From Candidatus Krumholzibacteriia bacterium (GTDB lineage Bacteria; Krumholzibacteriota; Krumholzibacteriia; G020349025), in the NCBI GenBank assembly GCA_035649435.1, contig DASRJO010000113.1, positions 1-62,214 on the forward strand: DNA of 62,214 nt, given 5' to 3'. A program made the position numbers and the translations under genes. The notes under the pieces were generated by a model. That model did not search any database. It was not told the origin of the DNA and worked only from the letters and a program-made list of their open reading frames with translations. Below, piece by piece: positions 27,301-54,588 of the stretch (positions are counted from its first letter, which is position 1; every line of letters starts with the position of its first letter).

Positions 27301-27331
27301 CCACGGTGGCCATGAACTGGAGCACGAGTCC

Positions 27332-39807: not shown

Positions 39808-39879
39808 AGCCCCCAGCGGCGGGCGTCTCGTTGGGCAGATGAGCCCAGGTCATCGGTGCGAAATCGGCGGCCCGCTCAC

Positions 39880-39899
39880 TGTAGGACTAAGGTCCTACA
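39880..39899. promoter_or_regulatory. Perfect 20-bp palindrome TGTAGGAC-TAAG-GTCCTACA in the divergent GH94/lacI control region
   Basis: The arms at 39880..39887 and 39892..39899 are exact reverse complements with a 4-nt spacer. The site lies 73 nt upstream of the GH94 GTG (39807). It is a candidate operator for a second regulator or a 5'-UTR hairpin. Confidence 0.4.
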
Positions 39900-39941
39900 A
39901 GGGAAAGTCCAACTGTGAGCTTGACGGCGCGGGGGTGTTCG

Positions 39942-39955
39942 TGTAACCGTTTACA
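39942..39955. promoter_or_regulatory. LacI/GalR-family operator (TGTAACCGTTTACA)
   Basis: The site fits the family consensus TGnAAnCGnTTnCA at all fixed positions and is 12/14 self-complementary. It lies between the divergent GH94 operon start (39807) and the LacI-family gene start (40023). Confidence 0.6.
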
Positions 39956-40022
39956 CGCTCGAACCGAGCGTCTCGCCTGGCGCCCGCGCGTCCAGAAACG
40001 GCGCGGCGCATCGGAGTTCGTC

Positions 40023-41153
40023 GTGGCGACCATCCGAGATGTCGCACGCCTGGCCGGCGTGTCCATCGCCACGGTCTCGCGGGTCTTCAACAACAGCCCG
40101 CGCGTGAGCGAGGAAAGTGCCCGCCGCGTCCGCGCGGCGGCGACGCGGCTCGACTACTGGCCGAACACCGGTGCACGCAGCCTCACCACCAGCCGCACCC
40201 ATGCGCTCGGCGTTCTCCTTCCCGATCTCTTCGGCGAGTTCTTTTCCGAGGTCATTCGCGGCATCGACCATGCCGCGCGTGAAGAAAAGCTGCAAATCCT
40301 CGTCTCCAGCTCGCACGCCGACACCGGCGAGCTCGTCACCGCGGCCCGCGCCATGCGCGGGCGCATCGACGGCCTCATCGCCATGGTGCCCGACAACGGC
40401 GCGGGGTCCGAGATCCAGCAGATCGTGCGGCGTTTTCCCGTGGTGTTCATGAACCCGCGCACCAAGATGAACGGCTGCAACACGGTGTCCATCGCCAACT
40501 ACGATGGCGCGCGCGCAGTGGTGGAGCACCTCGTCGGTCTCGGCCACACGCGGATCGCGACGATCCGCGGGCCGAAGGGCAACGCGGATGCCGAGCAGCG
40601 CCTGCGCGGTTACCGGGACGCGCTGCGCGCCGCCGGCCAGATGCCGGAACCGAAGCTCGAGCTGCAGGGAGATTTCACCGAGAGGTCGGGGTTCCAGTGC
40701 TGCGCCGAGCTGCTTCACCTCGAGCCGAGGCCGTCCGCCGTGTTCGCTGCCAACGACTACATGGCGATTGGGTTGCTGAGCGCCCTGCGCGATGCCGGAA
40801 TCGATGTGCCGAAGGCCATGGCGGTCACCGGCTTCGACGACATCGCCTTCGCGCGCTACCTCGATCCGGCGCTCACGACGGTGCATGTGGACGCCTATGG
40901 GCTGGGAGAGCAGGCGACGCGATCGCTCGTGCCGTTCATGCGTGCTTCACGGCCTTCGCGTTGCACCCATATCGTCTTGCCGGCGACCTTGGCGGTGCGC
41001 AGTTCTTGCGGCGCCGCCGACGCACCGCAAGCGGGGCCCATCCGTCGCCGCCGGCGCGAGACCGAGCCCGTGCCTGTCAAAGGCAAGGCTCCGCTTCGAG
41101 TCCGGAGTCCATCGCCTACCATGCGGCGGCCGCGCGGCAAGGCAGGTGTGTGA
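40023..41153 (+). CDS. LacI-family transcriptional regulator
   Basis: In-frame GTG at 40023 (GGAG 6 nt upstream) within ORF 39915..41153. The N-terminal HTH is ATIRDVARLAGVSIATVSRVFNN, followed by a periplasmic-binding-fold sugar domain (ALGVLLPDLFGEFFSEVIRGI..., VTGFDDIAFARYLDPALTTV). The last ~40 aa form an unusual Arg/Pro-rich tail. Confidence 0.85.
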   Translation: MATIRDVARLAGVSIATVSRVFNNSPRVSEESARRVRAAATRLDYWPNTGARSLTTSRTHALGVLLPDLFGEFFSEVIRGIDHAAREEKLQILVSSSHADTGELVTAARAMRGRIDGLIAMVPDNGAGSEIQQIVRRFPVVFMNPRTKMNGCNTVSIANYDGARAVVEHLVGLGHTRIATIRGPKGNADAEQRLRGYRDALRAAGQMPEPKLELQGDFTERSGFQCCAELLHLEPRPSAVFAANDYMAIGLLSALRDAGIDVPKAMAVTGFDDIAFARYLDPALTTVHVDAYGLGEQATRSLVPFMRASRPSRCTHIVLPATLAVRSSCGAADAPQAGPIRRRRRETEPVPVKGKAPLRVRSPSPTMRRPRGKAGV

Positions 41154-41226
41154 TGACGATCCCCCCATTCAAGACCGTTGCGCACGATCACTCGAAATCG
41201 CATTTACTCGTGAGGAGGCACCAGCC

Positions 41227-43128
41227 ATGAACGTCGCAAGAGCAACCCTGTTCTTCTTGGTCGCGACGTTGCTCGCCGCGACCACCGTCTGGGCGCAGGC
41301 ACCGCGCCAGGACGCTATTTGGGCCAAGCGCTCGCAACGCCCGATCACACTCAACGGCGTGCTGAGCGAACCCGGGTGGGCCGTGGCCGAATCGGTCGTG
41401 ATCAACATGGCCACGGATACCGGCATCCCCGGCAGCGGGTGGAAATACGAGGGCGGCATCCTGCCGAGCGATCCGACCCGTGCGACGCTCAAGTTCCTCG
41501 TCGTAGGCAACCAGCTCTACCTGGGTGCGGTGGTGCGCGACAAATCGATCGGCGGCTCGATCGATTTCAATCGCTTCGACGGCTTGCTGATGGGGCTCAA
41601 GAACCACTCGGACCCCAACGCGCCCAAGCCGACGGCGGAATACTTCTACTCGTGGTGGTATCCAGTGGAAGCCAATCCACCCCAACCACAGCCTGTAGGG
41701 TATCCGCCGAGTTTCATCGGCATTTGGGCCAATTTGCCAGCCGGCTCGCCGCGGAGCGCCGAGCAAATCGCCAACTGGGACGCCGTGACCGTCGTGCACG
41801 GGCAAACGAACACCGACACGTCACTCGACACCGACTACACGGTGGAAATGCGCTTCAACTTGACGCCGATGGGGTACGACGTGACCCAGCCCGAAGGCGA
41901 CATCATCGAGTGGAACGTTTCGATCTACGACTGCGACTGGCAGTGGCCGCTCAACGTCAACATGCTGTCCTACAACCGTGTGTGGTACCAGAGTCCGTGG
42001 GGCAACACCGGCTGGTACGACGAAGTGCACATCTACGCCCGGCCCGACGTGACGGTGGAATCCAACAACCCGTTGCCGACCATTCAACCGGAGCTCATCG
42101 TGCCCAATGGCGCAGCCCTGGCCGCGCCCACGATGAACGGCACGCTGACGGAACCCGTGTGGAGCACTCTCGCCTACAGGTTCGACATGCGCTACGGCGA
42201 CGACGCCTTGCGCCAGACGTATCCGGGCGTCGGTCCGTATCGAGCGGGGCAGCATCAACCCACGGTGAACGGTTCGCAGGCGGCGATCCTCGACCCGGCC
42301 GATGCCACGGTGCGGATGTTCTTCCGCGGCGACCGGCTCTACTTGGGTTTCGACGTGCGCGACCAGGTCGTGCAGTACCACGCCAACTTCGATCGCTGGG
42401 ATGGCTTCCTGGTCACTCTCAACGAACGCGTGCAGCGCGGTCCCGACAACGAGCTGCTGGGCAGGCGGCTGTCCTTCCAGGTGAGCGCGGCTGGCACCGC
42501 GACACCACAGGACTATCTGACGACGTTGGTGGCCGCAGGCGATGCGCAAGTCAGCCTTGCCCTCAAGAGCGCCACCACCGTGGACACGCTGGGGACGACG
42601 GCCGATCAGGGCTACACGGCGGAGATGTGGGTGGATCTGACCGCACTCGGCTACCCTGTGGGATTGGGGGATGGAACGCTCTTCCTCGGCGTCAACTATC
42701 TGGATGGCGATTCGTTCGTGCCCAGCAGCGACAGCTATGGCTCGCGGACGTGGTGGTTCCGTGAGTACGAGGGTCAATGCTGCCCGGTGTGGGCCTACAT
42801 GGCGCCCTCGCCGCCGACCGATATCGCTCTTCCCGAGGCGAATCTCGACGGCTCGATCCTGCTCGGAAGCTACCCGAATCCGGCGCCGCGGCCGACGATC
42901 CGCTACGCGCTCGCAAGCTCGAGCCAAGTGACGTTGGAGGTCTTCGATGTCGCCGGCCGTCTGGTCGAGCGCCGGCTTCTCGGGTTGCAGAACGCCGGCC
43001 TCGGCGAAGCTGCTTTCGGCGGCAAAGGGCGGTCCGCCGGCGTGTATGTTTACCGGCTCAACGTGAACGACCCGGCGACGGGCGCCTTGCGCAAGACCCT
43101 CTCCGGACGGCTCGTCGTCGTCAAGTGA
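41227..43128 (+). CDS. Secreted protein with two CBM9-like/DOMON-like modules and a T9SS C-terminal sorting domain
   Basis: In-frame ATG at 41227 (GAGGAGG upstream) within ORF 40792..43128. The signal peptide is MNVARATLFFLVATLLAATTVWAQA. The module starts are PITLNGVLSEPGWAVAESV and PTMNGTLTEPVWSTLAYRF (the I-DG-LDE--W pattern of CBM9-like domains). The tail SYPNPAPRPTIRYALASSSQVTLEVFDVAGRLV...GVYVYRLNV...LVVVK fits the CTD pattern. Confidence 0.7.
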   Translation: MNVARATLFFLVATLLAATTVWAQAPRQDAIWAKRSQRPITLNGVLSEPGWAVAESVVINMATDTGIPGSGWKYEGGILPSDPTRATLKFLVVGNQLYLGAVVRDKSIGGSIDFNRFDGLLMGLKNHSDPNAPKPTAEYFYSWWYPVEANPPQPQPVGYPPSFIGIWANLPAGSPRSAEQIANWDAVTVVHGQTNTDTSLDTDYTVEMRFNLTPMGYDVTQPEGDIIEWNVSIYDCDWQWPLNVNMLSYNRVWYQSPWGNTGWYDEVHIYARPDVTVESNNPLPTIQPELIVPNGAALAAPTMNGTLTEPVWSTLAYRFDMRYGDDALRQTYPGVGPYRAGQHQPTVNGSQAAILDPADATVRMFFRGDRLYLGFDVRDQVVQYHANFDRWDGFLVTLNERVQRGPDNELLGRRLSFQVSAAGTATPQDYLTTLVAAGDAQVSLALKSATTVDTLGTTADQGYTAEMWVDLTALGYPVGLGDGTLFLGVNYLDGDSFVPSSDSYGSRTWWFREYEGQCCPVWAYMAPSPPTDIALPEANLDGSILLGSYPNPAPRPTIRYALASSSQVTLEVFDVAGRLVERRLLGLQNAGLGEAAFGGKGRSAGVYVYRLNVNDPATGALRKTLSGRLVVVK

Positions 43129-43177
43129 CGACAAAGGAGTGTCGTCGCGAGCAAGCGGCATTTGGAGGCAGCAGAGC

Positions 43178-45838
43178 GTGAAGCGCGCAAAGACGGTCTG
43201 TTGTCGGGCGCGAGCGGCTCTCGTCGTCGGCTGGCTCGTTTGCTTGCAGCCGTCTCCAGGGAGCGCGGGGACGACCGGGACGATCGCCGGCGAAGTGACC
43301 GACGCCCAGAAGCGACCCGTGATCGCCGCCACGGTCTTCATCCCGGGATCCCCCTTCGGAGCGTTCACGAACGAACTGGGTCGATACAACATCCTCAACG
43401 TGCCAGCGGGAACATACGAGGTGCAGATCAACCGCGTCGGCTTCAAGGCTCTCACCATCCGTGATGTCGTGGTCTCGGCCGACCAGACGACGCGGCTCGA
43501 CGCCGTGCTCGAGGAAACGGCGATCACGACGGAAACCGTCGTCGTCTCCGCCAAGCGGCCGCCGGTGGACGTGAGGCTCACGAGCAGCATCGCCCGGCTG
43601 CAGAGCGAAGAGATCGCCAAGCTGCCGGTGCAAGAGCTGCAGGACGTGGTGAATCTGCAGGCGGGTGTCGTCAACGGTCATTTCCACGGCGGCCGCCTCG
43701 GTGAGGTGCAGTACCAAGTGGACGGCGTCACGATCAACAACGCCTTCGACAACACCGCGAGTCTCCGGGTGGATCGTTCGCTGCTGCAGGAAGTGCAGGT
43801 CATCACCGGCACATTCGACGCCGAGTACGGACAAGCCATGAGCGGTGTCGTGAACGCCGTCCTCAAGGACGGGAGCGAGAAGTTCCAGGCCGAGGCGGAG
43901 CTCTTCGGCGGCGGTTTCTTCTTCCCGGGCCGTGCCGACGAACGCCTGGTGGATGACGAGGTCCAACCCACGGCCGTCGGCAACCTGACGCTCTCGGTGA
44001 GTGGTCCGGTGGGGGTGCCGCAGACGGTATTCCTCGTGAATGCCCGGCGCTACGAGTTCGAGGATTACGTGCCTGCCGCGCGCATTTTCCTGCCGGCGCC
44101 ATCGGTCGCCTACCGCCCCGACTCAACCAGCTATCCCATCGCCACGGTCGGGGACGGCGAAGAATCACCCCTCGGTTACTCGCGCGAGTGGTCCGGAGCG
44201 CTCAAGATCACCAATCGGTCGATCTCGAACCTCAAGATTGGATACCAAGTGCTGGTGAACGACATCGAGGGACGGCGCACCGACTACGCCTTCCGCGCCA
44301 ATCCGGACGGCATGGTCAGTCAACACACGTTCTCGCTGGCGCATGGTCTCGACCTCACACGCAACCTGGGTAAATCCACCTACCTCGACTTCAGCCTGCG
44401 TCAGAACTACTTCGACTACATCGATGAGGCCTACGAGGACGTGTTCGACATCCGCTACGATGCCGCGGGCCCGCCCGATATTTCCGATATCGAGCCGGGC
44501 CTCGTCCAATGGGGCGTCGACTTCACGCGCTTCCATCAGACTACGAACACGGTGCTGTTCAAGAGCAAGCTCGTGAGCCAGGTGACGCCTGTGCAGCAGC
44601 TCAAGCTGGGATTGGAGATGCAGTTTCCCAAGCTGCAGTTCGGCACGCCCGGGCACGTGGTCCTGACCGGGGCCGGCCTCCAGCGTTACGTCGACGAGCC
44701 CCCGGACTGGCCGGGGGTGCAGACCTACTGGCCGGTGCTCGGCGCGGTCTTCGTCCATGACCAGCTCGAATGGCGCGACTTCGCGCTCCGGGTCGGCGCT
44801 CGCCTCGACTACTTCGACGCGCGATCGTCGCTCCCGAGCGATCTCGCCAACCCGGCCAATGCCATCCCCGTGCCGCAGCAGTCCGTTCCGGTGCCAACCC
44901 AGCCCAAGGTCTTCCTGTCGCCGCGCCTGGGGGTGGCCTACCCGATCACGGAGAGTGCCGGCGTGCACTTCGCCTACGGACATTTCGTGCAGTTTCCCAC
45001 CCTGCGCGACGTGTTCACCAACGCCGATTACTCGTTCCTGGCGCGGGTTCAGGCCTCCACTTCCGAATTCAGACACGTCATGGGCAACCCGGACGTCGAT
45101 CCGGAGAAATCGGTTCAATACGAGTTCGGGTACAAACAAGCTCTGTCGGAAGACTTCGGTTTCGAGGTGAGCCTGTTCTACAAGGACATCCGCGACTTGC
45201 TCGGCAGCGAGTTCATCAACACCTATAACGACGCGACCTACGCGCGGCTCACGAACGTCGACTTCGGCAGCGTCGGTGGCTTCACCATCACGCTCGACCA
45301 CCGGCGACTGGGACCGGCCAGCTTCGCTCTCGACTATACGTGGACACGCGCGATCGGGAACTCGAGCGAACCCTACGAAACTGCCTCCCGCGCCGATGTC
45401 GGCGAGGATCCTCGACCGCGCGTGATCCCGTTCGATTGGGATCAGCGCCACACACTCAACATCACCCTCGCCTTGGCGAAGCCCCAGGTCTACTCGATCA
45501 GTACCGTACTGCGGGCGGCCAGCGGCCAGCCTTACACCCCAGAGACCGAGCTGGGCGGGTTCGAGTTCGGTGTGGGCGAGAATGCCGCGCGCAAGCCCTC
45601 AGGCGTCGTGGTCGATCTGCGCGGCGAACGCAGCTTCGGCTGGGTGGGACAGCGCTGGGGCCTGTTCGGCCGCGTCTTCAACGTGTTCGACTCGCGCTTC
45701 TTCAACGGCGGGGTGTTCGCGGACACGGGGAGCCCCTTCTATTCGCGCTTCCCCGACCAAGTGGAGCTCAGCGCACCGACACGCTTCTATTCGCCGCGGC
45801 GTGTCGAGATCGGTTTCACCGTGCGCATGGGTCTTTGA
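43178..45838 (+). CDS. TonB-dependent receptor with N-terminal carboxypeptidase-regulatory-like domain (SusC-like build)
   Basis: ORF 43139..45838. The preferred start is GTG at 43178 (GGAGG 8 nt upstream). The CarbopepD_reg-like segment is TGTIAGEVTDAQKRPVIAATVFIPGSPFGAFTNELGRYNILNVPAGTYEVQINRVGF. The plug reads LQSEEIAKLPVQELQDVVNLQAGVV...QVDGVTINN...VITGTFDAEYGQAMSGVVN, and a long beta-barrel follows. Confidence 0.85.
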   Translation: MKRAKTVCCRARAALVVGWLVCLQPSPGSAGTTGTIAGEVTDAQKRPVIAATVFIPGSPFGAFTNELGRYNILNVPAGTYEVQINRVGFKALTIRDVVVSADQTTRLDAVLEETAITTETVVVSAKRPPVDVRLTSSIARLQSEEIAKLPVQELQDVVNLQAGVVNGHFHGGRLGEVQYQVDGVTINNAFDNTASLRVDRSLLQEVQVITGTFDAEYGQAMSGVVNAVLKDGSEKFQAEAELFGGGFFFPGRADERLVDDEVQPTAVGNLTLSVSGPVGVPQTVFLVNARRYEFEDYVPAARIFLPAPSVAYRPDSTSYPIATVGDGEESPLGYSREWSGALKITNRSISNLKIGYQVLVNDIEGRRTDYAFRANPDGMVSQHTFSLAHGLDLTRNLGKSTYLDFSLRQNYFDYIDEAYEDVFDIRYDAAGPPDISDIEPGLVQWGVDFTRFHQTTNTVLFKSKLVSQVTPVQQLKLGLEMQFPKLQFGTPGHVVLTGAGLQRYVDEPPDWPGVQTYWPVLGAVFVHDQLEWRDFALRVGARLDYFDARSSLPSDLANPANAIPVPQQSVPVPTQPKVFLSPRLGVAYPITESAGVHFAYGHFVQFPTLRDVFTNADYSFLARVQASTSEFRHVMGNPDVDPEKSVQYEFGYKQALSEDFGFEVSLFYKDIRDLLGSEFINTYNDATYARLTNVDFGSVGGFTITLDHRRLGPASFALDYTWTRAIGNSSEPYETASRADVGEDPRPRVIPFDWDQRHTLNITLALAKPQVYSISTVLRAASGQPYTPETELGGFEFGVGENAARKPSGVVVDLRGERSFGWVGQRWGLFGRVFNVFDSRFFNGGVFADTGSPFYSRFPDQVELSAPTRFYSPRRVEIGFTVRMGL

Positions 45839-45863
45839 CTGCGGACCGCGAGGGAGGTGAGAC

Positions 45864-48800
45864 ATGCAATTCACGACCGAGACACGACGCAGCGGGCTCG
45901 CTGTCACTGTGTTGCTTCTGCTGTCGAGCCCAGCAGCCCCTGTGCAAGGACAGGTCACGACACCCGTGCCGGCGGATCAGCGCGGGACGCTCAACGCCGA
46001 GCGCTCCGGCATCCACGACGCCGCCAATATCCGCACTCTCTTTTGGAACTACGGCATGGTGGGTGACTATCCGGTCGACCCGGTGAACGTGGATCTCAGT
46101 GTCTTCCATTCCGCCGAGGTGCCGGAGGGCTCGGGGATGAACTACAGCGACGGGATCACACCCTTCGTGCTCGCCAAAGTGCGGCAGCGCAATGGTCTCG
46201 ATGCCTACATCATGGAAACTGGTTTTCGCGAGCGTCAAGGGCTCTCGCCCTACTTCAACCGCGTGATGCGATTCGAGCCGAGGCCAGGCTACTTCCAGGC
46301 CGATCCGGGACGGAGCCCGGCGCGCTCGCCGGCCATCAGCAGCGACCCGCGCACATGGCCGGACTTCTGGCCGGACAAGCAGCTCGATCCGGAGGATCCC
46401 GGCTGGCGCGGCAGCTGGAACGGCTACTTCGGCAAACGCGCTGCGGCCGACCAGGAAAGCTTCATGGTCATGGACGACCAATTCTACGACGCCTGGGATT
46501 ACTACCCCGACGAGCGCGATCTCACACGCCGCGGGCTCGGCCTGCGCATCGAAGTGCGTGGTTTCCAATGGGCCAATCCTCAGGCCGGGAACGTCATATT
46601 CTGGCACTACGACATCACCAACGAAGGCACCACCGACTACGACGACAACATCATCTTCGGTCTCTACATGGACTCGGGTGTCGGCGGCTCGGCGCTCTCC
46701 TGCGACGGCATCTACGAATCCGACGACGACAACGCATTCTTCGACCGCACCTTCGACCAGGACGTGATCAACCTGGTCTACACCTGGGACCGCTTCGGCC
46801 ACGGCCGCGATCTGGGGAGCACGTGCGCGCGCACCGGGTATCTCGGTTACGCCTACCTCGAGACACCCGGCAATCCATTCGACGGCGCGGACAACGACGA
46901 AGACGGCATCACCGACGAACGGCGCGACGCGGGCCCGGGTGAGCTCATCGTGGGCCAGGACGCGATCGCGGCTTGGGTGGAAGGACACTACAACCGCGCA
47001 CAGTTCGAGTTGGAGTACGGGCCGCTCGCCAACCGCCCCGCCTACCGTGCCGGGCGCTGGTGGACGGGTGACGAGGACATGGATTGGAACCCGGAGCTGC
47101 ACGATCTGGGTGGTGACGGCGTACCGGACACCGACGATCTCGGCGAAGGCGATGGCGTGCCGACCACCGGGGAAGCCAACTTCGACCGCACCGACCTCAA
47201 CGAGTCGGACCAGATCGGTCTCACCGGGTTCAAGATCAACCGCATCAAGGCGGGGCAGGGAAATCCCAGCCAGGAGGTCGACGGCGTCCTCTTCTTCACC
47301 GAGAGCAACAACTGGCCGCAGCGCCTGTATCAGCAATTCACCAACCCGGACCCGGCATTGCGCTTCGACCCGCCGCTGGCCTCGAACTACAACATCGGTT
47401 TCCTCTTCGCCTCGGGTCCGTTCGAGCTGCGCGCTGGGCAGACCGAGCGGTTCAGCCTGGCGTTGGCTTACGGCGGCGACCTCAACGAATTGCGACGCAC
47501 CGTACGCACGGTGCAGAAGATCTACGACGCCAACTATCAGTTCGCGGTGCCGCCGAAGCTGCCGACGGTCACTGCCGAAGCGAGCGATGGGAGGGTCCGG
47601 CTGTCGTGGGACGACGTGGCCGAGCGCAGTGCCGATCCGGTGACCGGCGAGTTCGATTTCGAAGGCTACCGCATCTATCGCTCCACGGATCCGGAATTCC
47701 GCGACGTCAAGCTGATCAGCACGGGCACGGGGACGGGTCCGCTCGGCAACGGCCGGCCCAGTGCGCAGTTCGATCTCGTGAACGGCAAGATCGGCTTCTC
47801 GCAACAGACGGTGGAGGGCGTGGCCTACTACTTGGGCGATGACACCGGCCTCACCCACACGTGGACGGATTCGACCGCAGTCAATGGTCAGCTCTATTAC
47901 TACGCCGTCACGGCTTACGATCACGGCTCGGAAGCTTTCGATTTCTATCCGTCCGAGAATTCCATCTCGGTGTCCAAGACTCGGCGCGGCGGGACGATCC
48001 TGGCCTCGAATGTCGCGGAGGTTCGGCCCGAGCCCCCGGTGCGCGGGTACGTCCGAGCGCGCACGGATGCGCTCTCCCATGCCGCCGGCGATGGCATCGG
48101 CTCGATCCGGATCGAAGTGCTGAACTCGGCTCTCGTGCCCGACGACAAGCTGTTCAAGATCAGCTTCTCGGGCCATCCGGACAACGTGCGGGCCGAAGGC
48201 TATGCACTCATCGACAGCACGTCCGAGCAGGTCGTGTTCGACACCGGCCGCGATTTGGAGGGTGTGGGAAACGGGCCGGTGGGTGCCGGGCTCCTGCCCG
48301 TGATCGCAACACAGAAGACGGTGGAAGTCGATTCAGTCCGGACGGGTTTCGCCTCCGGGGGCCCGACCAACGCCCAGATCCTGGTTGATTACCAAACGGT
48401 GCTTCCCATCAACCGGCGGCGGTCGGGCTTCCCGGAGGACTTGGAGATCACCTTCGCCGATGTCGTTGTCGATACGGGGCTCGCCATCTTCCCAATCCCG
48501 GCCCGCGCGGCGAAATTCCGGGTGATGGCGCACACGGCGATGGGTGATCGCCCGATGAACTTCCGCTTCCGTGACCTGGATAATGATGGGACCTTGAGCC
48601 GGCCGGACGAGTTCGTGGACGTCGTCACGTACGTGGACGAGGCACCTGGGATGCCACAGGTCACCTGGAGGTTCGTGATCTCGGGCACGAGCGACGGCGG
48701 CGCTCTGCGACCGCCGCGAGATGGGGATGTGTTCACGCTCCGGCTCACCAAGCCATTCGGGGTTGGGGACCTCTTCGTCTTCACCACGAGCGGCGAGTTC

Positions 48801-49139
48801 GTGGACGCCGAGCAGGCGGTGAGTGCGAACGACCGGCCCTACGTGGTGCCGAATCCCTACGTGGGATCGGCCAGCTTCGAGCCGGAGCGATTCAACATCG
48901 CGGGACGGGGTGAACGACGGATCGAGTTCCGCAACCTGCCGCAGTCGTGCACGATCCGGATCTACACCGTGCGTGGCGAGCTAGTGCAGACCTTGGTGCA
49001 CGACGGCTCGACCGCCGGTGCCGTGGCGTGGAACCTCCGCACCAAGGACAACCTGGACCTGGCCCCGGGCCTGTATGTGTTCCACGTCGATGCTGGAGCG
49101 GTCGAGTCGAGCATCGGCAAGTTCGCGGTCATCAAGTGA
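45864..49139 (+). CDS. Large secreted hypothetical protein (1091 aa) with Ca-binding Asp-rich loops, an FN3-like module and a T9SS-CTD-like tail
   Basis: ORF 45864..49139, with AGGGAGG upstream and a 25-nt gap after the TBDR gene. The signal peptide is LAVTVLLLLSSPAAPVQGQ. Thrombospondin-type-3-like loops are DGADNDEDGITDE and DLGGDGVPDTDDLGEGDGVP. The FN3-like segment is PTVTAEASDGRVRLSWDDV...FEGYRIYRS. The tail is VVPNPYVGSA...CTIRIYTVRGELV...GLYVFHVDAG...GKFAVIK. The N-terminal 400 aa match no family I can name. Confidence 0.7.
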   Translation: MQFTTETRRSGLAVTVLLLLSSPAAPVQGQVTTPVPADQRGTLNAERSGIHDAANIRTLFWNYGMVGDYPVDPVNVDLSVFHSAEVPEGSGMNYSDGITPFVLAKVRQRNGLDAYIMETGFRERQGLSPYFNRVMRFEPRPGYFQADPGRSPARSPAISSDPRTWPDFWPDKQLDPEDPGWRGSWNGYFGKRAAADQESFMVMDDQFYDAWDYYPDERDLTRRGLGLRIEVRGFQWANPQAGNVIFWHYDITNEGTTDYDDNIIFGLYMDSGVGGSALSCDGIYESDDDNAFFDRTFDQDVINLVYTWDRFGHGRDLGSTCARTGYLGYAYLETPGNPFDGADNDEDGITDERRDAGPGELIVGQDAIAAWVEGHYNRAQFELEYGPLANRPAYRAGRWWTGDEDMDWNPELHDLGGDGVPDTDDLGEGDGVPTTGEANFDRTDLNESDQIGLTGFKINRIKAGQGNPSQEVDGVLFFTESNNWPQRLYQQFTNPDPALRFDPPLASNYNIGFLFASGPFELRAGQTERFSLALAYGGDLNELRRTVRTVQKIYDANYQFAVPPKLPTVTAEASDGRVRLSWDDVAERSADPVTGEFDFEGYRIYRSTDPEFRDVKLISTGTGTGPLGNGRPSAQFDLVNGKIGFSQQTVEGVAYYLGDDTGLTHTWTDSTAVNGQLYYYAVTAYDHGSEAFDFYPSENSISVSKTRRGGTILASNVAEVRPEPPVRGYVRARTDALSHAAGDGIGSIRIEVLNSALVPDDKLFKISFSGHPDNVRAEGYALIDSTSEQVVFDTGRDLEGVGNGPVGAGLLPVIATQKTVEVDSVRTGFASGGPTNAQILVDYQTVLPINRRRSGFPEDLEITFADVVVDTGLAIFPIPARAAKFRVMAHTAMGDRPMNFRFRDLDNDGTLSRPDEFVDVVTYVDEAPGMPQVTWRFVISGTSDGGALRPPRDGDVFTLRLTKPFGVGDLFVFTTSGEFVDAEQAVSANDRPYVVPNPYVGSASFEPERFNIAGRGERRIEFRNLPQSCTIRIYTVRGELVQTLVHDGSTAGAVAWNLRTKDNLDLAPGLYVFHVDAGAVESSIGKFAVIK

Positions 49140-49156
49140 AGTTGGGGAGCAGCGGG

Positions 49157-50167
49157 ATGAAGCGTGTCGTGGTCACTGAGCTCCTGTGCGCGATGGTGCT
49201 CGGGGAATCGGCGGTGGCGCAGACACAGGTGGGAACCACGATCGGCCAGTTCCTGGCCATCGAGCCGAGCGCGCGCATCGCGGCGATGGGAAACGCCGGC
49301 GTGGCGGTGGGCGGCGGCATCCAGGCCGTCTACTACAACCCGGGGGCGCTGGGTCTCGTGCCGTCGACCTCATTTCAATTCAGCCATGGCGTCTGGTTCG
49401 CCGACATCCGCTACGAGTACGCCGCGGCAGCGATCTCGCTCGAGGATTGGGGCAATCTCCTGGTCAGCGTGACCGCGCTCAACTCGGGCGACATCGAGGT
49501 GCGCACGGTGACGGCGCCGCTGGGCACAGGGGAGCTGTACTCCGCCCAAGATCTCGCCTTTGGCATCGGCTATGCCCGCCAGGTGACCGACCGCTTCGCC
49601 GCCGGCGCACAGTTCAACTATCTCAACGAGACGATCTGGCACAGCTCTCTCAATGCTTACACGCTCAGCTTCGGCACGACGTACCGAATCAACGATGCCG
49701 GCTTGACGCTCGGGGCGAGCGTGCTCAACTTCGGCACTCGCAGCGGCTACGACGGCCTCGATCTCACGATCCAGTACGACGCCGACCCCGATCAGCACGG
49801 GGACAACAGCGCTCTTCCCGCCGAGCAATCCACCGACGAGTTCCCCGTGCCGACGGTTTTCCGTGTTGGGATGAGCTATCCGCAGCGGACGAGCGCCTCG
49901 AGCACGATCTTGATGACCGTGGATGCGTTCCACCCCAATGACAACACGGAGGGCCTGAGCCTCGGCTGGGAGTGGACATGGAAGGACGCGCTGGCGCTGC
50001 GCGCTGGGTATCAGAGCTTGGGCCAGCAAGACTCCGAGCTCGGACCGACCGCGGGCGTCGGCTTGAGTGGCAACATCGCTTCGCGCCGTTTCCAACTCGA
50101 CTACGGCTGGGCCTCGCACACGGTCTTGCCGGAAATGCATCGCATCACCTTCACGCTGACGATGTGA
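49157..50167 (+). CDS. PorV/PorQ-family outer-membrane beta-barrel protein
   Basis: In-frame ATG at 49157 within ORF 48947..50167, 17 nt after the upstream stop. The signal peptide is MKRVVVTELLCAMVLGESAVAQT. The family-typical N-terminus is GQFLAIEPSARIAAMGNAGVAVGGGIQAVYYNPGALG. Amphipathic beta-strands alternate through to the C-terminal ITFTLTM. Confidence 0.7.
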   Translation: MKRVVVTELLCAMVLGESAVAQTQVGTTIGQFLAIEPSARIAAMGNAGVAVGGGIQAVYYNPGALGLVPSTSFQFSHGVWFADIRYEYAAAAISLEDWGNLLVSVTALNSGDIEVRTVTAPLGTGELYSAQDLAFGIGYARQVTDRFAAGAQFNYLNETIWHSSLNAYTLSFGTTYRINDAGLTLGASVLNFGTRSGYDGLDLTIQYDADPDQHGDNSALPAEQSTDEFPVPTVFRVGMSYPQRTSASSTILMTVDAFHPNDNTEGLSLGWEWTWKDALALRAGYQSLGQQDSELGPTAGVGLSGNIASRRFQLDYGWASHTVLPEMHRITFTLTM

Positions 50168-50171
50168 GGCC

Positions 50172-51848
50172 ATGGAACCAAACCGAACAACACGAGGCAG
50201 CGCGCGCGATCCGGCCCGAGGCGAAACCTCACGCACGAAGTGGCCAAAGGGAGTGAGTCCTTTGATCCGGTCCATCCTCCGTTCCTGTCTGCTCGCGATC
50301 GTCCTCACCGGTCCGCCGACCGCGGCCAAGGCGCTCAGCACGGAGGCGTTGCTCGATACGCTGCAGCACACCGCGTTCGACTTCTTCTGGAACGAGGTGA
50401 ATGTCAGCAACGGGCTCATCAAGGATCGCAACACTTCGGGGTCGCCGTGCAGCATCGCCTCGCTGGGCTTCGGGCTCTCGGCCATCTGCATCGGCATCGA
50501 TCATGGGTGGGTGAGCCGCGACGCCGGCCGTGCACGCATCCTGACGGCGTTGCAGACCTTGTGGACGGCGCCGCAGAGCTCCGCGGCCAGCGGCACCATT
50601 GGCTACCAAGGTCTCTACTACCACTTCCTCGACATGACCACGGCGACGCGGACGTGGAACTCCGAGCTGTCCACCATCGACACAGCTCTGCTGTTCGCCG
50701 GCGTCATCGACGCCAAGCAATTCTTCGACACCGCCGCCGCCGGGGACGTGCAGGTGCGAGAGCTCGCCGACTCCATTTATCAGCGCGCCAACTGGGAGTT
50801 CATGCGCAACTTCGCGCCCTCGATCTACATGGGCTGGAAGCCGGGCACCGGATTCTCCGGCTTCGGTCAGTGGATCGGTTACAACGAGGCGATGATCCTG
50901 TTCATCCTGGCGCTGGGATCGCCGACGCATCCGGTACCCACGAGCACGTGGACCGCGTGGACCGCCGGCTACGATTGGGACACACAGTACGGGCAGACCT
51001 ACGTCACCTTCCCGCCGCTCTTCGGACACCAGTACAGCCACTGCTGGATCGATTTCTACAACATCCGGGATGCCTACATGCAGAATCGTGGCATCACCTA
51101 CTTCGAGAACTCGCGACGGGCCACCTTGGCGCAGCAGGCTTACTGCATCGCCAACCCGCTCGGTCGTGTCGGCTATGGCGCCAACGTCTGGGGGATCACG
51201 GCCAGCGACGCACCCACAGGCTATTCGGCGCATGGCGCACCGCCTCCCCAGAACGACGATGGAACCATCGCCCCTACGGCGGTCGCCGGCTCCATCCCGT
51301 TCGCCCCCGAGATCGTCGTGCCGACCTTGCATCATCTGTACGACACCTACGGCGCTCAGCTCTTCTCCACGTACGGGTTCCGCGATGCCTTCAATCTGGG
51401 GGCGAATTGGTGGGACACCGATACCATCGGCATCGATCAGGGGCCGATCATCATCATGATCGAGAACTACCGCACGAACCGGGTGTGGAATCGCTTCATG
51501 CAGAACCCCGACGTCCAACGCGGGCTGCAGCGCGCCGGCTTCGTCGTCGCCACCGACCTGGCCGCGGGCGGCGGCGCAGGGGAGCCACGCTTCACCTTGT
51601 CGCAGAATCGGCCCAACCCCGTGCGCGCAGACGCCTTGGTGCCTTTCCGTCTCGATGCGGTCGGGCGCGTGTCGATGGGACTCTACGACGTGGCAGGGCG
51701 TCGCGTGCGCCGGATCCTGGATGGTGTCTACGCGCCAGGTGCGCACACGGTCCCTCTCGACACCACGGGCCTTCCGAACGGGACGTATTACATCCGATTG
51801 GAGGTGAACGGCGAGCGGCAGGCGAAAGCGTGCTTGGTCATCCGCTGA
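50172..51848 (+). CDS. Second PF10091 / GH144-type glucoamylase-like protein, with T9SS C-terminal sorting domain
   Basis: ORF 50172..51848. An alternative TTG start at 50262 has AAAGGGAG 8 nt upstream and would give IRSILRSCLLAIVLTGPPTAAKA as the signal peptide. It shares the motif series of 24359..25966: FDFFWNE, GLYYHFLDMTTATR, LSTIDTALLFAGVIDAKQFF, GYNEAMI, FGHQYSHCWIDFYNIRD, YFENSRRA, NPLGRVGYGANVWGITASD, GFRDAFN, IGIDQGP. The tail is NRPNPVRADALVPFRL...VSMGLYDVAGRRV...GTYYIRLEVNGERQAKACLVIR. Confidence 0.7.
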   Translation: MEPNRTTRGSARDPARGETSRTKWPKGVSPLIRSILRSCLLAIVLTGPPTAAKALSTEALLDTLQHTAFDFFWNEVNVSNGLIKDRNTSGSPCSIASLGFGLSAICIGIDHGWVSRDAGRARILTALQTLWTAPQSSAASGTIGYQGLYYHFLDMTTATRTWNSELSTIDTALLFAGVIDAKQFFDTAAAGDVQVRELADSIYQRANWEFMRNFAPSIYMGWKPGTGFSGFGQWIGYNEAMILFILALGSPTHPVPTSTWTAWTAGYDWDTQYGQTYVTFPPLFGHQYSHCWIDFYNIRDAYMQNRGITYFENSRRATLAQQAYCIANPLGRVGYGANVWGITASDAPTGYSAHGAPPPQNDDGTIAPTAVAGSIPFAPEIVVPTLHHLYDTYGAQLFSTYGFRDAFNLGANWWDTDTIGIDQGPIIIMIENYRTNRVWNRFMQNPDVQRGLQRAGFVVATDLAAGGGAGEPRFTLSQNRPNPVRADALVPFRLDAVGRVSMGLYDVAGRRVRRILDGVYAPGAHTVPLDTTGLPNGTYYIRLEVNGERQAKACLVIR

Positions 51849-51947
51849 TCGCTGCCGCGGATTTCGCATCGCTTGCATCTTGTTCTTGTCATGCGTGGTC
51901 CAGCGTCATGAACGCTCGAGGTCATTTTTGTTTCGATTCGTGCGCAT

Positions 51948-52021
51948 GATCGAGTGGGTGATTGCACCCGATTTCATCAAAAGAAGAAACGAGGTTGAAA
52001 CACGATCGAGTGGCTGATAGC
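51948..52021. repeat. 18-bp direct repeat GATCGAGTGG(G/C)TGAT(T/A)GC, two copies, in the AT-richer gap upstream of 52118
   Basis: The copies at 51948..51965 and 52004..52021 match at 16 of 18 positions and start 56 bp apart. They sit inside the only large gap (269 bp) of the plus-strand gene array 40023..54469, so this is a candidate internal promoter/operator region. Confidence 0.5.
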
Positions 52022-52117
52022 TTCGGACTGAACGACTCGACTTTGTGCCCCCTGCGCCTTGTTCAAGGAGCCATTTTCGCGTCCACGTTGCAGAGCTTCG
52101 TACGAGGAGGAACATCC

Positions 52118-54469
52118 ATGAGACGCTTCGATTCTCGTGCTGGGGTGATGGCCGTTGTCGCGGCCGTCGGCCTGGTGTGCTTCGCGGCGGCCTTTGGAGG
52201 CACGGCTCGTGCGACACCGTTGCCCAACGGTGCCAGCATCGAGGCCCGTACCTTCAACGACTGCGGCCTGTCGACCCTTACGGTGACGAACAATTTCCCG
52301 GCGTCGGTCGAGATCACCGATGCGATGCATCCGGCGTGCCTTGGCTTCGCCAACCTGCACAGCTTCAGTTTCTCGGAGGACGGCGGCGCGACCGCTGCCG
52401 CCTTCGCCAACAACTCGAGCTTCCGGTTCGGCGCCGACTTCACCCTCAGCGGCCCGGGCGAAGGAGAAGGCGGGCTGCGCCTTTCCCCGTGGTGGTCGCA
52501 GTTGGTGGACGGGCGTTTCATGGCGAACGCGACGAGCGGCGAAATCGCCGTGTTCGGCGGCCGCCTGCCCTTCTACAGCTTCACCGTCAATCACGGCATC
52601 TCCTATGTCAAAGGCACGACGATCCGTTTCGAGCTGACCTATCTGGACAATGGGTTGAGCGCAGCGGATCCGGCCACGGTTCAGTACCGCGCGATCTACG
52701 GTGGCAACACCTACGATAGCCCGGTGCTCTCGTTCGACATGGGCAACCCGGGGGAGGATCCTCCGTACGGACTGTGGGGGATGCTGAACGACGGGCGGGC
52801 CGGCGGTTACTTCCAGGTGCGAGCCAACACCGGAGTTGCGCTCACCGCCAACTGGTCGAACGTCGAGTTCACCCCGCTCGGGACGCCGGATGTGAACGCC
52901 GCGACGATCGAGGCCCGCACGTTCAACGACTGTGCGCTCTCGACGCTCACGACGACGAACAACTATCCGACGCTCGTCGAGATCACCGATGAGATGAATC
53001 CGGCGTGTCTCGGTTTCGCCAACTTGCACAGCTTCAGCTTCTCCGAAGACGGCGGAGTGACACCTGCGGTGTTCAACAACGTTTCGATCTTCCGCTTCGG
53101 AGCCGATTTCACGCTCAGCGGCGCGGGCACAGGGGAAGGCGGTCTGCGGCTCTCCCCATGGTGGTCGCAGTTCGTGGACGGGCGCTTCATGGCGAACGCG
53201 ACGACCGGCGAGATCGCCTGCTTCGGTGGCCGCCTGCCCTTCTACAGCTTCACCGTGAATCACGGCATCACCTACGTGAAGGGCACGACGATCCACATGG
53301 AGCTGACCTACAACCCGAACGGGCTGAGTGCCGCGGACCCGGCGACGATCCAGTACCGCGTGGTCTCTGGCGGCAGCACCTACGACAGCCCGGTGCTGAC
53401 GTTCGACGAGGGCAACGCGGGCGAGGATCCACCCTTCGGTTTGTGGGGGATGCTGAACAACGGACGTGCTGGCGGCTACTTCCAGGTGCGCGCCAACACC
53501 GGCGCCGCGCTCACGGCCACGTGGGGGAACATCACGTTCGGGACTTGCCTCGTCACGATGGACTTCACATTCCAACCTGAGACTCTCAATCTGAAAGCGC
53601 AGGGAAACTTCGTGACCGGCTACCTCGAGCCGCCGGCGGGCTACGCGGCGGAAGACATCGACGTGTCCTCGATCCTGCTCAACGGCACGGTGGCGGTGGC
53701 GGACGGCGCGCCGACATCGATCGGCGACTTCGACGGGGACGGTGTCGCGGACCTGAAGGTCAAGTTCAGCCGTTCCGAAGTCTTGGCAGTCCTGTCCGCG
53801 GGCGATGACGTCCAGGTGTCGGTGAGTGGAACCGTGGCGGGCGACTGCTTCCAGGGTTCGGACATGATCCGGGTCAAGGACTCGGGTCTCCATTCGCCAC
53901 CGCACGGCGCGGTCCTCGTCGCCGGAACCCAGGCCGAGGTGATCTGGGAGGTGGACAGTCACTACCCGAGGGTGGACCTGATTTCGTCCTTCGATGGCGG
54001 CGCCACCTGGAACATCGAGGCGCGCCGGCTGCAGAACACCGGCACCTACCAATGGACCGTTCCTGCCGTGCTCACGGACCAGGCGTCGCTCGCAGTGGTC
54101 GTGATCCACGGCGAGAACGCGGACCTGGAGCTGGAAGCCGAGCTGGGCCAGAGCAGTGCCACGTTCTCCATCACGACGCCCACGGACGCGCTCAATCGCG
54201 GCAACGTCTTCGCGCTGCATGGCGTGTCGCCGAACCCCGCACGGCTCGGCATCACGGTGAACTTCAGCTTGGCCAGCTCGGAGCCGGCGAAGCTCGAGGT
54301 CTTCGACGTGCGCGGACGGCAGGTTGCTGACGCCGACGTCGGCACGATGGGTCCAGGCATGCACAGCCTGACGTTCGGCAAGGAGAAAAACCTCGCTGCC
54401 GGCGTCTACATGGTGCGGCTCACCAAGGGGGATCGCAGCCTCCGGGTGCGAGCAACCGTGATCCAGTAG
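52118..54469 (+). CDS. Secreted protein with a tandemly duplicated 223-aa domain of unknown function, a Ca-binding DxDxDG-like motif, an Ig-like region and a T9SS C-terminal sorting domain
   Basis: In-frame ATG at 52118 (GAGGAGG upstream) within ORF 51962..54469. The signal peptide is MRRFDSRAGVMAVVAAVGLVCFAAAFGGTARA. Two near-identical domains follow (see the repeat feature), then DFDGDGVADLKVKF, and then the tail VSPNPARLGITVNFSLASSEPAKLEVFDVRGRQV...GVYMVRLTKGDRSLRVRATVIQ. Confidence 0.7.
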   Translation: MRRFDSRAGVMAVVAAVGLVCFAAAFGGTARATPLPNGASIEARTFNDCGLSTLTVTNNFPASVEITDAMHPACLGFANLHSFSFSEDGGATAAAFANNSSFRFGADFTLSGPGEGEGGLRLSPWWSQLVDGRFMANATSGEIAVFGGRLPFYSFTVNHGISYVKGTTIRFELTYLDNGLSAADPATVQYRAIYGGNTYDSPVLSFDMGNPGEDPPYGLWGMLNDGRAGGYFQVRANTGVALTANWSNVEFTPLGTPDVNAATIEARTFNDCALSTLTTTNNYPTLVEITDEMNPACLGFANLHSFSFSEDGGVTPAVFNNVSIFRFGADFTLSGAGTGEGGLRLSPWWSQFVDGRFMANATTGEIACFGGRLPFYSFTVNHGITYVKGTTIHMELTYNPNGLSAADPATIQYRVVSGGSTYDSPVLTFDEGNAGEDPPFGLWGMLNNGRAGGYFQVRANTGAALTATWGNITFGTCLVTMDFTFQPETLNLKAQGNFVTGYLEPPAGYAAEDIDVSSILLNGTVAVADGAPTSIGDFDGDGVADLKVKFSRSEVLAVLSAGDDVQVSVSGTVAGDCFQGSDMIRVKDSGLHSPPHGAVLVAGTQAEVIWEVDSHYPRVDLISSFDGGATWNIEARRLQNTGTYQWTVPAVLTDQASLAVVVIHGENADLELEAELGQSSATFSITTPTDALNRGNVFALHGVSPNPARLGITVNFSLASSEPAKLEVFDVRGRQVADADVGTMGPGMHSLTFGKEKNLAAGVYMVRLTKGDRSLRVRATVIQ
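52232..53569 (+). repeat. 669-bp tandem duplication (2 copies) encoding the duplicated unknown domain
   Basis: ATCGAGGCCCG occurs at 52238 and 52907, a 669-nt (223-codon) period. The copies share long identical peptide runs: IEARTFNDC, PACLGFANLHSFSFSEDGG, FRFGADFTLSG, GEGGLRLSPWWSQ, VDGRFMANAT, FGGRLPFYSFTVNHGI, YVKGTTI, NGLSAADPAT, GRAGGYFQVRANTG. Confidence 0.85.
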
Positions 54470-54489
54470 ACGTTTCTTGCCTCTATACT

Positions 54490-54519
54490 CCGGGGTCCGG
54501 CCGAGCGGCCGGGCCCCGG
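54490..54519 (+). terminator. GC-rich stem-loop, candidate intrinsic terminator of the 52118..54469 gene
   Basis: CCGGGGTCCGGCC-GAGC-GGCCGGGCCCCGG forms a 13-bp stem (one G-U pair) with a 4-nt loop, starting 20 nt after the stop. No U-tract follows, so function is uncertain. Confidence 0.45.
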
Positions 54520-54588
54520 ATTCCGACGCATGCGCGCCCCGCCTGCCTCGAATCCATCCCATCGTCCGAACAGCGAAATGGATCGCGC

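Follow-up and report, generated by a model that had tools for sequence, protein, structure and literature searches.

Presence of SusC/SusD, the paradigm for glycan foraging, defines polysaccharide utilization loci (PULs) in genome annotation. Which proteins could serve glycan capture in a locus whose TonB-dependent receptor (TBDR) has no SusD beside it? This question is raised by a 62,214-nt stretch of DNA from a Candidatus Krumholzibacteriia bacterium (GenBank assembly GCA_035649435.1, contig DASRJO010000113.1), which is referred to here as the window. Within it, a TBDR gene is followed by a gene for a 1091-aa secreted protein of no named family, which we call BIG, and then by a gene for an outer-membrane barrel of the PorV/PorQ family, whose named members belong to the secretion system of type IX (T9SS). 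This triad forms the outer-membrane part of a ~30-kb locus that also encodes two family 144 glycoside hydrolases (GH144), a GH94, a GH1, an ATP-binding cassette (ABC) importer, and a LacI-family regulator.

The TBDR gene lies on the + strand and ends at 45838; alternative GTG starts at 43139 and 43178 give products of 899 and 886 aa, respectively. BIG is encoded at 45864–49139 (+), after a 25-nt gap in which a GGAGG ribosome-binding site precedes its start. The barrel gene (49157–50167, +) follows 17 nt past BIG, and 4 nt further on lies a GH144 gene whose product carries a T9SS C-terminal domain (CTD; 50172–51848, +). All four genes and the three spacings are as reported in a first-pass annotation made from the sequence alone, which had pointed out that the neighbor of the TBDR is a 1091-aa protein and not SusD. 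In agreement with that account, SusD-family Pfam models matched neither BIG nor the neighboring open reading frames (ORFs) tested at E ≤ 0.01, and the 25-nt TBDR–BIG gap is too short for an overlooked SusD gene. The window has a G+C content of ~65%, and its + strand ORFs are closely packed, with G+C of coding type at third codon positions. Because a scan of positions 39700–54800 for promoters and terminators returned sites no more frequently than in shuffled sequence, we infer an operon only from the 25-, 17-, and 4-nt gaps. Neither a second cassette of this kind nor a BIG paralog was found within the window.

The first-pass annotation had asked whether the triad is syntenic in other genomes. 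Scanning one genome per GTDB species with peptide patterns derived from the query yielded 378 places with a close BIG relative, of which the best 80 were kept; these belong to Eisenbacteria, Krumholzibacteriia, Ignavibacteria/Melioribacteraceae, Calditrichia, KSB1, Rhodothermales, and unclassified "Bacteroidota" metagenome-assembled genomes (MAGs). Synteny was assessed by tblastn of the window proteins against the 80 loci, with counts restricted to loci with enough flank. The whole locus is syntenic across these best 80 of 378 places, which span at least six named lineages. The TBDR–BIG–barrel arrangement itself recurs far beyond chance: the TBDR gene stands directly upstream of BIG in 59 of 60 orthologous loci, the barrel gene directly downstream in 72 of 72, and the same order returns in nine of ten paralogous contexts, described below. 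A gene for a CTD protein resembling carbohydrate-binding module family 9 (CBM9) precedes the TBDR gene in all 52 orthologous loci counted, GH144-CTD is found in 42 of 42, GH94 and LacI are syntenic in 53 and 48, respectively, and an 835-aa CTD protein is conserved 3′ of GH144 in 34. Median identity is highest for BIG (65%), followed by GH144 (58%), LacI (56%), CBM9-CTD (54%), the TBDR (53%), the barrel (52%), and GH94 (46%). The closest orthologous locus, from an unclassified MAG (L001), reaches 87% identity, and the next closest are from Eisenbacteria. Among the orthologous loci, four (L069, L073, L076, and L077) come from Ignavibacteria MAGs and contain both BIG and the barrel.

The triad is also conserved in loci built on other carbohydrate-active enzymes (CAZymes). 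An exhaustive HMMER search delimits a BIG family of 4157 clusters (50% identity representatives) at E ≤ 1e-3, 609 of them at E ≤ 1e-30, whose members are typically 1000–1600 aa long and 35–45% identical to the query. We looked up ten paralog places, picked from the 150 best representatives. Eight hold a TBDR with a CarboxypepD_reg domain, a BIG paralog, and a PorV-like barrel in this order, and in a ninth, the short contig L092, the flanking fragments match the TBDR C-terminus and the barrel N-terminus. A TBDR gene lies directly upstream in every paralog cassette for which upstream sequence is present. The flanking genes vary with the locus. L081 and L082 are accompanied by three GH130 and two GH38 genes, an MFS transporter, and ROK; L083 and L084 by a CBM20-CTD protein; L085 by CBM9-CTD and GH26-CTD; L086 by GDSL/TPR and FG-GAP/ASPIC proteins and CBM9-CTD; L087 by two GH10 genes and CBM9-CTD; L088 by GDSL; L089 by a two-component regulator with a Reg_prop/Y_Y_Y sensor; and L091, a starch locus, by GH13, CBM20-CTD, an ABC importer, TrmB, and GH13-CTD. 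CBM9-CTD or FG-GAP-CTD genes adjoin paralog cassettes, and the CBM9-like CTD protein is a frequent fourth member. The paralogous BIG proteins are 30–45% identical and occur in loci that include those for mannoside, xylan, mannan, and starch, for which reason we rejected the idea that BIG is a protein specific for β-1,2-glucan. Across seven cassette types, homology is full-length for all three proteins (28%–44% identity for the TBDR, 30%–45% for BIG, and 31%–54% for the barrel), and their pairwise identities correlate (r = 0.61–0.80). The three genes therefore diverge as one unit, as expected for joint duplication.

Two further features were seen near paralog cassettes. Genes for rotamases (SurA-like peptidyl-prolyl isomerases), which might be dedicated periplasmic chaperones, directly adjoin the cassette at 4427–6133 of L091 and 13562–15445 of L089. 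A second CarboxypepD_reg plus TonB-barrel gene pair (18691–21384) starts ~6 kb 3′ of the L089 cassette and hints at tandem cassettes in one genome.

The receptor has the parts of a generic TBDR. A CarboxypepD_reg domain (PF13620 and PF13715; ~43280–43513) is followed by a Plug domain (PF07715, 27.6 bits against a cutoff of 23.9; ~43577–43849) and a barrel domain (PF00593, 90.9 bits, cutoff 27; ~44270–45685), all on the + strand. Reading the sequence immediately ahead of the Plug domain, we identified a candidate TonB box, ETVVVSA. The SusC/RagA model TIGR04056 scores 50.6 bits against a cutoff of 368.25 and aligns only over profile positions 2–119, its N-terminal domain, and the gene that directly follows is BIG, not the SusD/RagB gene of a SusC/RagA receptor. 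Judged by these matches, the TBDR is of a receptor lineage other than SusC/RagA, so the missing SusD is no anomaly within the SusC family. The model PF25183 (OMP_b-brl_4) is sub-threshold in the window TBDR and matches strongly in the TBDRs of paralog cassettes.

What, then, is BIG? At E ≤ 0.01 it matches no Pfam family, and its only NCBIfam match is weak and confined to the CTD. A word-indexed search returned more than 2000 homologs at 60%–87% identity, all named "hypothetical" and none with a Pfam domain. The protein begins with a Sec signal peptide (residues 1–29) that has no lipobox Cys and is therefore not a SusD-like lipoprotein. SusD/RagB proteins are characterized by membership of a SusD-like Pfam family, a length of ~500–600 aa, a lipoprotein signal peptide, and an α-helical fold resembling tetratricopeptide repeats (TPR); in BIG and 42 further members of its family we found no SusD match, and BIG has no signal-peptide Cys and a predicted fold that is mostly β. 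Asp-rich loops can be read directly in the sequence, at residues 343–352 (DNDEDGITDE) and at approximately residues 418–434 (DGVPDTDDLGEGDGVPT), and five residues, G224, R232, D343, D444, and D449, are invariant across paralogs. Nearly all relatives terminate in GKFA[IV]IK; the window protein ends in GKFAVIK. A profile search of the PDB with BIG gave nothing usable beyond a weak match to 3mpc, an Fn3-like protein (E 0.43).

Structure prediction gave BIG a domain architecture. A first AlphaFold2 (AF2) run, on the full-length protein with an alignment of 44 close orthologs, resolved only residues 710–1091, as β-sandwiches and the CTD; the predicted local distance difference test (pLDDT) fell below 50 over most of residues 1–710, and Foldseek searches with this model retrieved only generic FN3/Ig strings, including a match to PorZ that is likewise a generic β-sandwich. 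With a diverse alignment of 67 sequences and residues 1–730, a second run (model m51e191ea670c) reached a pLDDT of 85.9 and a predicted template modeling score (pTM) of 0.85, and is mostly β-strand. In this model, residues 30–562 (45951–47549, +) form a β-rich region with a supersandwich-like fold, Asp-rich loops of Ca-binding type at residues 341–356 and 401–452, and a helical insertion at residues 361–400. An FN3-like domain with a long insertion follows (residues 563–722; 47550–48029, +), with conserved W582, F599, Y678, and Y680 and a YYYAVTAYD motif. Residues 723–985 (48030–48818, +) comprise two fast-evolving β-sandwich domains, predicted in the full-length model at a pLDDT of ~90, which are probably a stalk or spacer. 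The protein ends in a CTD of T9SS type (residues 986–1091; 48819–49139, +), whose terminal motif GKFAVIK is kept family-wide. Foldseek searches of the PDB with the second model found N-terminal supersandwich domains of dextran dextrinase (GH15-like), GH94, GH116, GH149, GH63, and cyclic glucan synthase. By the secondary structure of the AF2 model, BIG contains no (α/α)6 catalytic barrel.

These predictions bear on several features named in the first-pass annotation. The N-terminal region, called unassignable there, now has a predicted supersandwich-like fold and still belongs to no sequence family. Of the FN3-like module, a corresponding sandwich appears in the AF2 model, and of the thrombospondin-type-3-like Asp loops, DxDxDG-type loops are present in the sequence; for both, support from hidden Markov models is missing, as the Pfam TSP_3 and fn3 models matched neither BIG nor 42 relatives at E ≤ 0.01.

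Conservation is distributed unevenly over these domains. In terms of the share of residues that agree with the query, the N-terminal region outside the Asp loops scores 0.74–0.87 in orthologs (0.57 in the helical insertion, residues 361–400) and 0.07–0.38 in paralogs. The corresponding values for orthologs and paralogs are 0.75–0.76 and 0.46–0.55 in the Asp loops, 0.74 and 0.43 in the FN3-like domain (563–722), and 0.72 and 0.48 in the CTD (986–1091); residues 723–985 score lowest in both sets (0.51 and ~0.2). The Asp loops, the FN3-like domain, and the CTD are thereby conserved in orthologs and paralogs alike. The overall pattern fits a putative context-specific head on a generic scaffold and anchor, with a spacer. 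In two paralogs, P0145 (residues 721–784) and P0149 (731–794), the first variable β-sandwich gives weak matches to NCBIfam models, at ~30 bits to "phage tail tube protein 6XGR" (cutoff 60) and at ~21 bits to SprA/Sov; both matches probably reflect a shared small sandwich motif.

How might such a protein be displayed on the cell surface? The tail of BIG has the sequence pattern of a T9SS CTD and a predicted β-sandwich. Of the T9SS-CTD-like tail proposed in the first-pass annotation, the pattern thus holds; the window protein is not reached by the type A CTD models TIGR04183 and PF18962 (cutoffs 23 and 27 bits) at E ≤ 0.1, and its sole NCBIfam match is to the CTD of the PorZ model NF052228, at 16.3 bits. 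Among 43 BIG-family members, NCBIfam CTD matches are to PorZ in 14, to PorU in 13, and to TIGR04183 in 6 (the last at E ≤ 0.01). In the members inspected, the PorU and PorZ matches cover only the last 50–110 model residues and score 14–23 bits; the best PorU match in the family as a whole, outside these members, has an E-value of 3.1e-11. BIG does not match PorU (NF033707, cutoff 420) or PorZ (NF052228, cutoff 260) at full length, that is, with the sortase region or propellers. A candidate identity as a PorU homolog was rejected, as none of the inspected members among the 13 relatives with a PorU match has that match outside the CTD. Both PorU and PorZ keep their CTDs, by which they are held on a barrel, PorU on PorV and PorZ on PorQ, and the genes porU and porV frequently lie side by side. 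In locus L090, the CTD of the BIG paralog (212–3541) gives ordinary FlgD_ig and Por_Secre_tail matches, and this protein may be a freed, conventionally secreted derivative.

The barrel gene encodes a 336-aa protein with a signal peptide that matches the PorV/PorQ family model NF033709 at 167.5 bits (cutoff 90) over profile positions 1–325 of 326, which bears out the earlier assignment to this family. It falls narrowly below threshold for Pfam PorV (25.9 bits, threshold 27), matches PorV of PDB 6h3i weakly (E 0.042), and scores 28.6 bits with a BamG model (cutoff 250). The equivalog models for PorV (NF033710, 63.9 bits, cutoff 250), PorQ (NF033711, 89.6 bits, cutoff 220), and PorV2 all fail. 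Six paralog barrels (L081, L083, and L085–L088) behave alike, with 180–242 bits for NF033709 and 53–106 bits, below cutoff, for the PorV and PorQ equivalogs. Because they pass the family model and fail both equivalogs, the BIG-linked barrels constitute a distinct subfamily. The 1:1 pairing of the barrel with BIG, their co-divergence, and the likeness of the BIG CTD to the retained CTDs of PorU and PorZ suggest that the barrel more likely serves BIG alone, as its dedicated anchor, than presents the whole CTD cargo of the locus.

Building on the observed gene order, conservation, modular reuse, family memberships, and predicted domain architecture, we propose that BIG is exported by the T9SS, is kept at the surface by its own PorV/PorQ-like barrel, and acts as the capture partner of the TBDR, a reading to which we assign a probability of roughly 0.55. 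The GH144 with a CTD would be secreted by the T9SS and, by family assignment, cut β-1,2-glucan outside the cell. BIG would also be exported by the T9SS and would not be released, its PorU/PorZ-like CTD staying on the barrel encoded by the neighboring gene, in the way that PorV holds PorU and PorQ holds PorZ; the 1:1 gene pairing, co-divergence, and CTD similarity suggest this retention. Display would thus depend on the T9SS and a barrel instead of a lipid anchor. The supersandwich-like N-terminal region, which is conserved among loci for one glycan and varies between glycan contexts, may capture oligosaccharides and hand them to the adjacent TBDR, in the manner of SusD or of a surface glycan-binding protein. 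The TBDR would then import the oligosaccharides, and the second GH144, the ABC importer, GH94, and GH1 would complete breakdown, as their families and the model for Ignavibacterium album (PMC8861115) suggest. On balance we favor a broader form of this proposal, in which the three-gene module forms the core of uptake for PUL-like loci of those lineages in the Fibrobacteres–Chlorobi–Bacteroidetes (FCB) superphylum that lie outside SusC/SusD, serving β-1,2-glucan here. We are slightly less inclined than not to extend it to many FCB-superphylum bacteria outside Bacteroidia, which would then capture glycans independently of lipoproteins through a trio belonging to each locus, with BIG held by an uncleaved CTD and the BIG family as the counterpart of SusD. 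Of the interpretation in the first-pass annotation, the recurrent SusD-less TBDR architecture with an embedded PorV paralogue stands, and the functional roles it gave to these proteins keep the conditional form used here.

Several observations weigh against our proposal. With a median identity of 65% across phyla, BIG is more conserved than is usual in surface glycan-binding proteins, which could indicate an enzyme or machine component, and the residues invariant across paralogs could mark a common active site and not a scaffold. The Foldseek TM-scores of just 0.2–0.25 place the supersandwich resemblance at the level of domains only. The CTD matches PorU and PorZ weakly and below threshold (14–23 bits in the members inspected), and the window protein matches PorZ alone, at 16 bits. 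The orthologous loci were located by peptide patterns derived from the query, the ten paralogs all come from the nearer part of the family (the 150 best representatives), and L090, whose sequence stops short on the upstream side, lacks a barrel gene downstream of its BIG paralog.

BIG might instead be a new surface CAZyme, possibly Ca-dependent, with the TBDR and barrel as merely co-regulated neighbors. Being the most conserved gene of its locus, having an N-terminal fold that resembles domains of GH15-like, GH94, GH116, GH149, and GH63 enzymes, and keeping acidic residues and R232 invariant family-wide would all suit an enzyme. The domains matched are the non-catalytic N-terminal supersandwiches of those enzymes, however, and BIG lacks an (α/α)6 barrel. 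Most of the invariant Asp residues are part of loops of the DxDxDG type, which is typical of Ca sites, and the invariant set is common to cassettes for β-1,2-glucan, mannoside, xylan, and starch, which misfits a single glycosidic specificity. As an enzyme identity would also leave the strict 1:1 pairing with the TBDR and barrel unexplained, we think it unlikely. A different role, close to the second inference of the first-pass annotation, is that BIG and the barrel make up a station for T9SS sorting or attachment that is reserved for the locus and, as a local analogue of PorU/PorV/PorZ/PorQ, gathers or anchors the GH144-CTD, CBM9-CTD, and 835-aa cargos at the TBDR. The family of the barrel, the resemblance of the BIG CTD to those of PorU and PorZ, and the presence of further CTD-tagged proteins beside nearly every cassette speak for such a station. 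Yet likeness to PorU and PorZ is confined to the CTD, with nothing resembling the sortase region of PorU or the propellers of PorZ, PorZ surfaces in fold space as a generic β-sandwich match, and an N-terminal region that depends on substrate context is unexpected in a generic sorting factor; a sorting role consequently strikes us as improbable.

It is also conceivable that the TBDR is directed outward, or serves something other than glycan import, such as Oar-like secretion or outer-membrane biogenesis, and that the association with CAZymes is secondary. The combination of PF25183 and CarboxypepD_reg is found in Oar-type receptors, one of which is required for protein secretion in Myxococcus, and it recurs in these TBDRs with the strengths given above; the weak BamG match of the barrel points the same way. 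Against this stand the Plug domain and candidate TonB box of the receptor, the T9SS export signal that BIG has of its own, and the content of every long locus, which holds sugar regulators (LacI, TrmB, or two-component), importers (ABC, MFS, or SSF), and cytoplasmic sugar enzymes. We give this explanation very little credence.

The proposed surface-capture module resembles known systems in part. As in SusC/SusD (RagA/RagB) systems, a CarboxypepD_reg-type TBDR gene is followed by the gene of a surface partner within a CAZyme locus that also encodes a regulator and importers of the inner membrane, and the unit recurs with many different glycans. The partner, however, is here a ~1100-aa β-rich protein with a T9SS CTD and no lipobox, in contrast to the ~550-aa α-helical SusD lipoprotein; the TBDR fails the SusC/RagA model, and the third, obligatory PorV/PorQ-like barrel has no Sus counterpart. 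With the PorU–PorV and PorZ–PorQ pairs of Porphyromonas and Flavobacterium, the module shares the pairing of a barrel of this family with a large protein whose CTD is PorU/PorZ-like. It differs in that the barrel fails the equivalogs, that BIG has neither sortase region nor propellers, and that BIG and its barrel occur in many diverged copies beside TBDRs in substrate loci, whereas PorU–PorV and PorZ–PorQ are single housekeeping machinery. TonB-dependent import of oligosaccharides in the absence of SusD also takes place in the carbohydrate utilization (CUT) loci of Proteobacteria such as Xanthomonas and Caulobacter, whose receptors act alone or with periplasmic partners; we know of no T9SS-exported partner or PorV-like barrel in these loci.

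The SGL (GH144) cluster of I. album (IALB_1177–1187) encodes two GH144 proteins, a GH94 homolog of SOGP, an ABC binding protein, and a TonB-dependent transporter (PMC8861115), which by this published description is the same β-1,2-glucan gene set as in the window. The GH35 glucosyltransferase studied in that work is not seen in the window. Of the outer-membrane components, only the TonB-dependent transporter is mentioned there, with "no biochemical evidence," and neither a large protein nor a PorV-like gene is discussed (PMC8861115). Two Rhodothermus loci come closer in gene order. In the xylan locus of R. marinus (Rmar_1067–1074), Rmar_1070 is a TBDR, Rmar_1071 a hypothetical protein that is cell-attached and has a CTD, and Rmar_1072 a hypothetical protein; this locus also contains a true SusC/SusD pair (PMC6987092). 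The R. marinus alginate locus lists tonB, hypA ("T9SS type A sorting domain"; 2181 nt, ~726 aa), and hypB ("PorV/PorQ family protein") (PMC9530828). By gene order alone, both loci liken to ours, with a TBDR, a hypothetical CTD protein, and a hypothetical or PorV/PorQ protein beside CTD-tagged CAZymes and LacI. They differ in that the genes are listed as hypothetical with no unit or function proposed, and HypA is shorter than BIG. Our literature search for the TBDR–BIG–barrel unit turned up no account that treats it as such, only these uninterpreted Rhodothermus gene maps, which sustains the earlier remark that the architecture is essentially undescribed. That the three genes recur together beside varied sugar-degrading enzymes suggests a TBDR-centred glycan locus with a new T9SS-dependent accessory pair, an undescribed counterpart of SusC/SusD.

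When PULs are defined by SusC/SusD, predictions miss the CAZyme loci found in Ignavibacteria, Calditrichia, Eisenbacteria, Krumholzibacteriia, KSB1, and some of the Rhodothermales; the conserved TBDR–BIG–barrel signature would mark and delimit such loci in lineages abundant in soil, sediment, and hot springs. Were the proposed capture function correct, a very large family of "hypothetical proteins," the 4157 clusters that have no Pfam or NCBIfam model, would gain a role, the T9SS would assemble nutrient-import machines beyond secreting enzymes and adhesins, and PorV/PorQ-type barrels, known as shuttles in secretion, would have a further use in anchoring uptake machinery permanently. It would also point to the missing outer-membrane step of the β-1,2-glucan pathway studied in I. 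album. The gene order has cultivable carriers, namely Rhodothermus marinus and probably I. album.

The remainder of the locus gives the triad its substrate. GH144 is the endo-β-1,2-glucanase family, and GH94 includes 1,2-β-oligoglucan phosphorylases. On account of these families, and of a gene set that matches the I. album SGL cluster (PMC8861115), we assign the ~30-kb locus by sequence to β-1,2-glucan utilization. Its extracellular enzyme is predicted to be the GH144 at 50172–51848 (PF10091, 275.7 bits, above cutoff), whose CTD scores 21.8 bits with TIGR04183, slightly under the cutoff of 23, and gives a weak Por_Secre_tail match. The second GH144 (24335–25966; PF10091, 262.4 bits) has no CTD. 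The GH94 protein (35950–39807, −; PF06165, 463.9 bits, and PF17167, 386.3 bits) is homologous both to 1,2-β-oligoglucan phosphorylase and to the C-terminal portion of cyclic glucan synthase and would represent the cytoplasmic step of the pathway. The GH1 gene lies at 34544–36187 (−), and the LacI-family regulator (PF00356 and PF13377) at 39915–41153 (+). The ABC importer comprises a solute-binding protein and two permeases (~26100–29043; PF01547 and twice PF00528) together with an ATPase (23194–24360, −) recognized from sequence only, by its Walker A motif GPSGCGKST.

Between LacI and the TBDR lies the CBM9-like CTD protein of ~633 aa (41227–43128, +; PF06452, 23.2 bits, cutoff 23.4; TIGR04183, 24.5 bits, cutoff 23), a candidate surface glycan-binding protein. 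A mechanically called ORF of 778 aa, with 40792–41226 in addition, overlaps the end of LacI by ~360 nt; we corrected the start to 41227, since both a clear signal peptide, MNVARATLFFLVATLLAATTVWAQA, and the conserved portion start there. Downstream of the GH144-CTD gene, an 835-aa CTD ORF (51962–54469, +; TIGR04183, 29.6 bits, above cutoff) probably has its true start near 52118. A PDB sequence search found no relative for the CBM9-like or the 835-aa protein, and both could be β-1,2-glucan-binding proteins or new enzymes. A further T9SS cargo, a 1364-aa CTD protein with Calx-beta and CBM96 domains and four Big_9/cadherin-like repeats, is encoded at 4808–8902 (−) and supports the presence of a T9SS in the organism. 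As the window alone encodes at least four CTD proteins besides BIG, a T9SS must exist in this bacterium.

Other genes of the locus include one for a 1072-aa protein (29040–32258, +) in which an F5/8 type C (discoidin) domain at residues 203–315 is the only assignment, leaving ~900 residues outside any family, and one for a GDSL/TPR protein (32362–34467, −). GDSL-lipase proteins adjoin BIG cassettes in unrelated loci, at 2356–4641 and 15996–18191 of L086 and 9266–10048 of L088 as well as in the window, and those of the window and L086 also carry TPR repeats; in sugar loci, carbohydrate esterase activity is one possibility for them. Elsewhere in the window, an 860-aa ORF (16255–18837, +) and a 419-aa ORF (60933–62192, −) have no Pfam match, and the latter ends in GSGVW, a terminus resembling that of outer-membrane proteins. 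Two divergent large ORFs, at 8951–11848 (−) and 11600–14437 (+), resemble Ser/Thr protein kinases: the latter has a Pfam Pkinase match and TPR repeats, and the former reads as a kinase with a TolB/WD40-like C-terminus.

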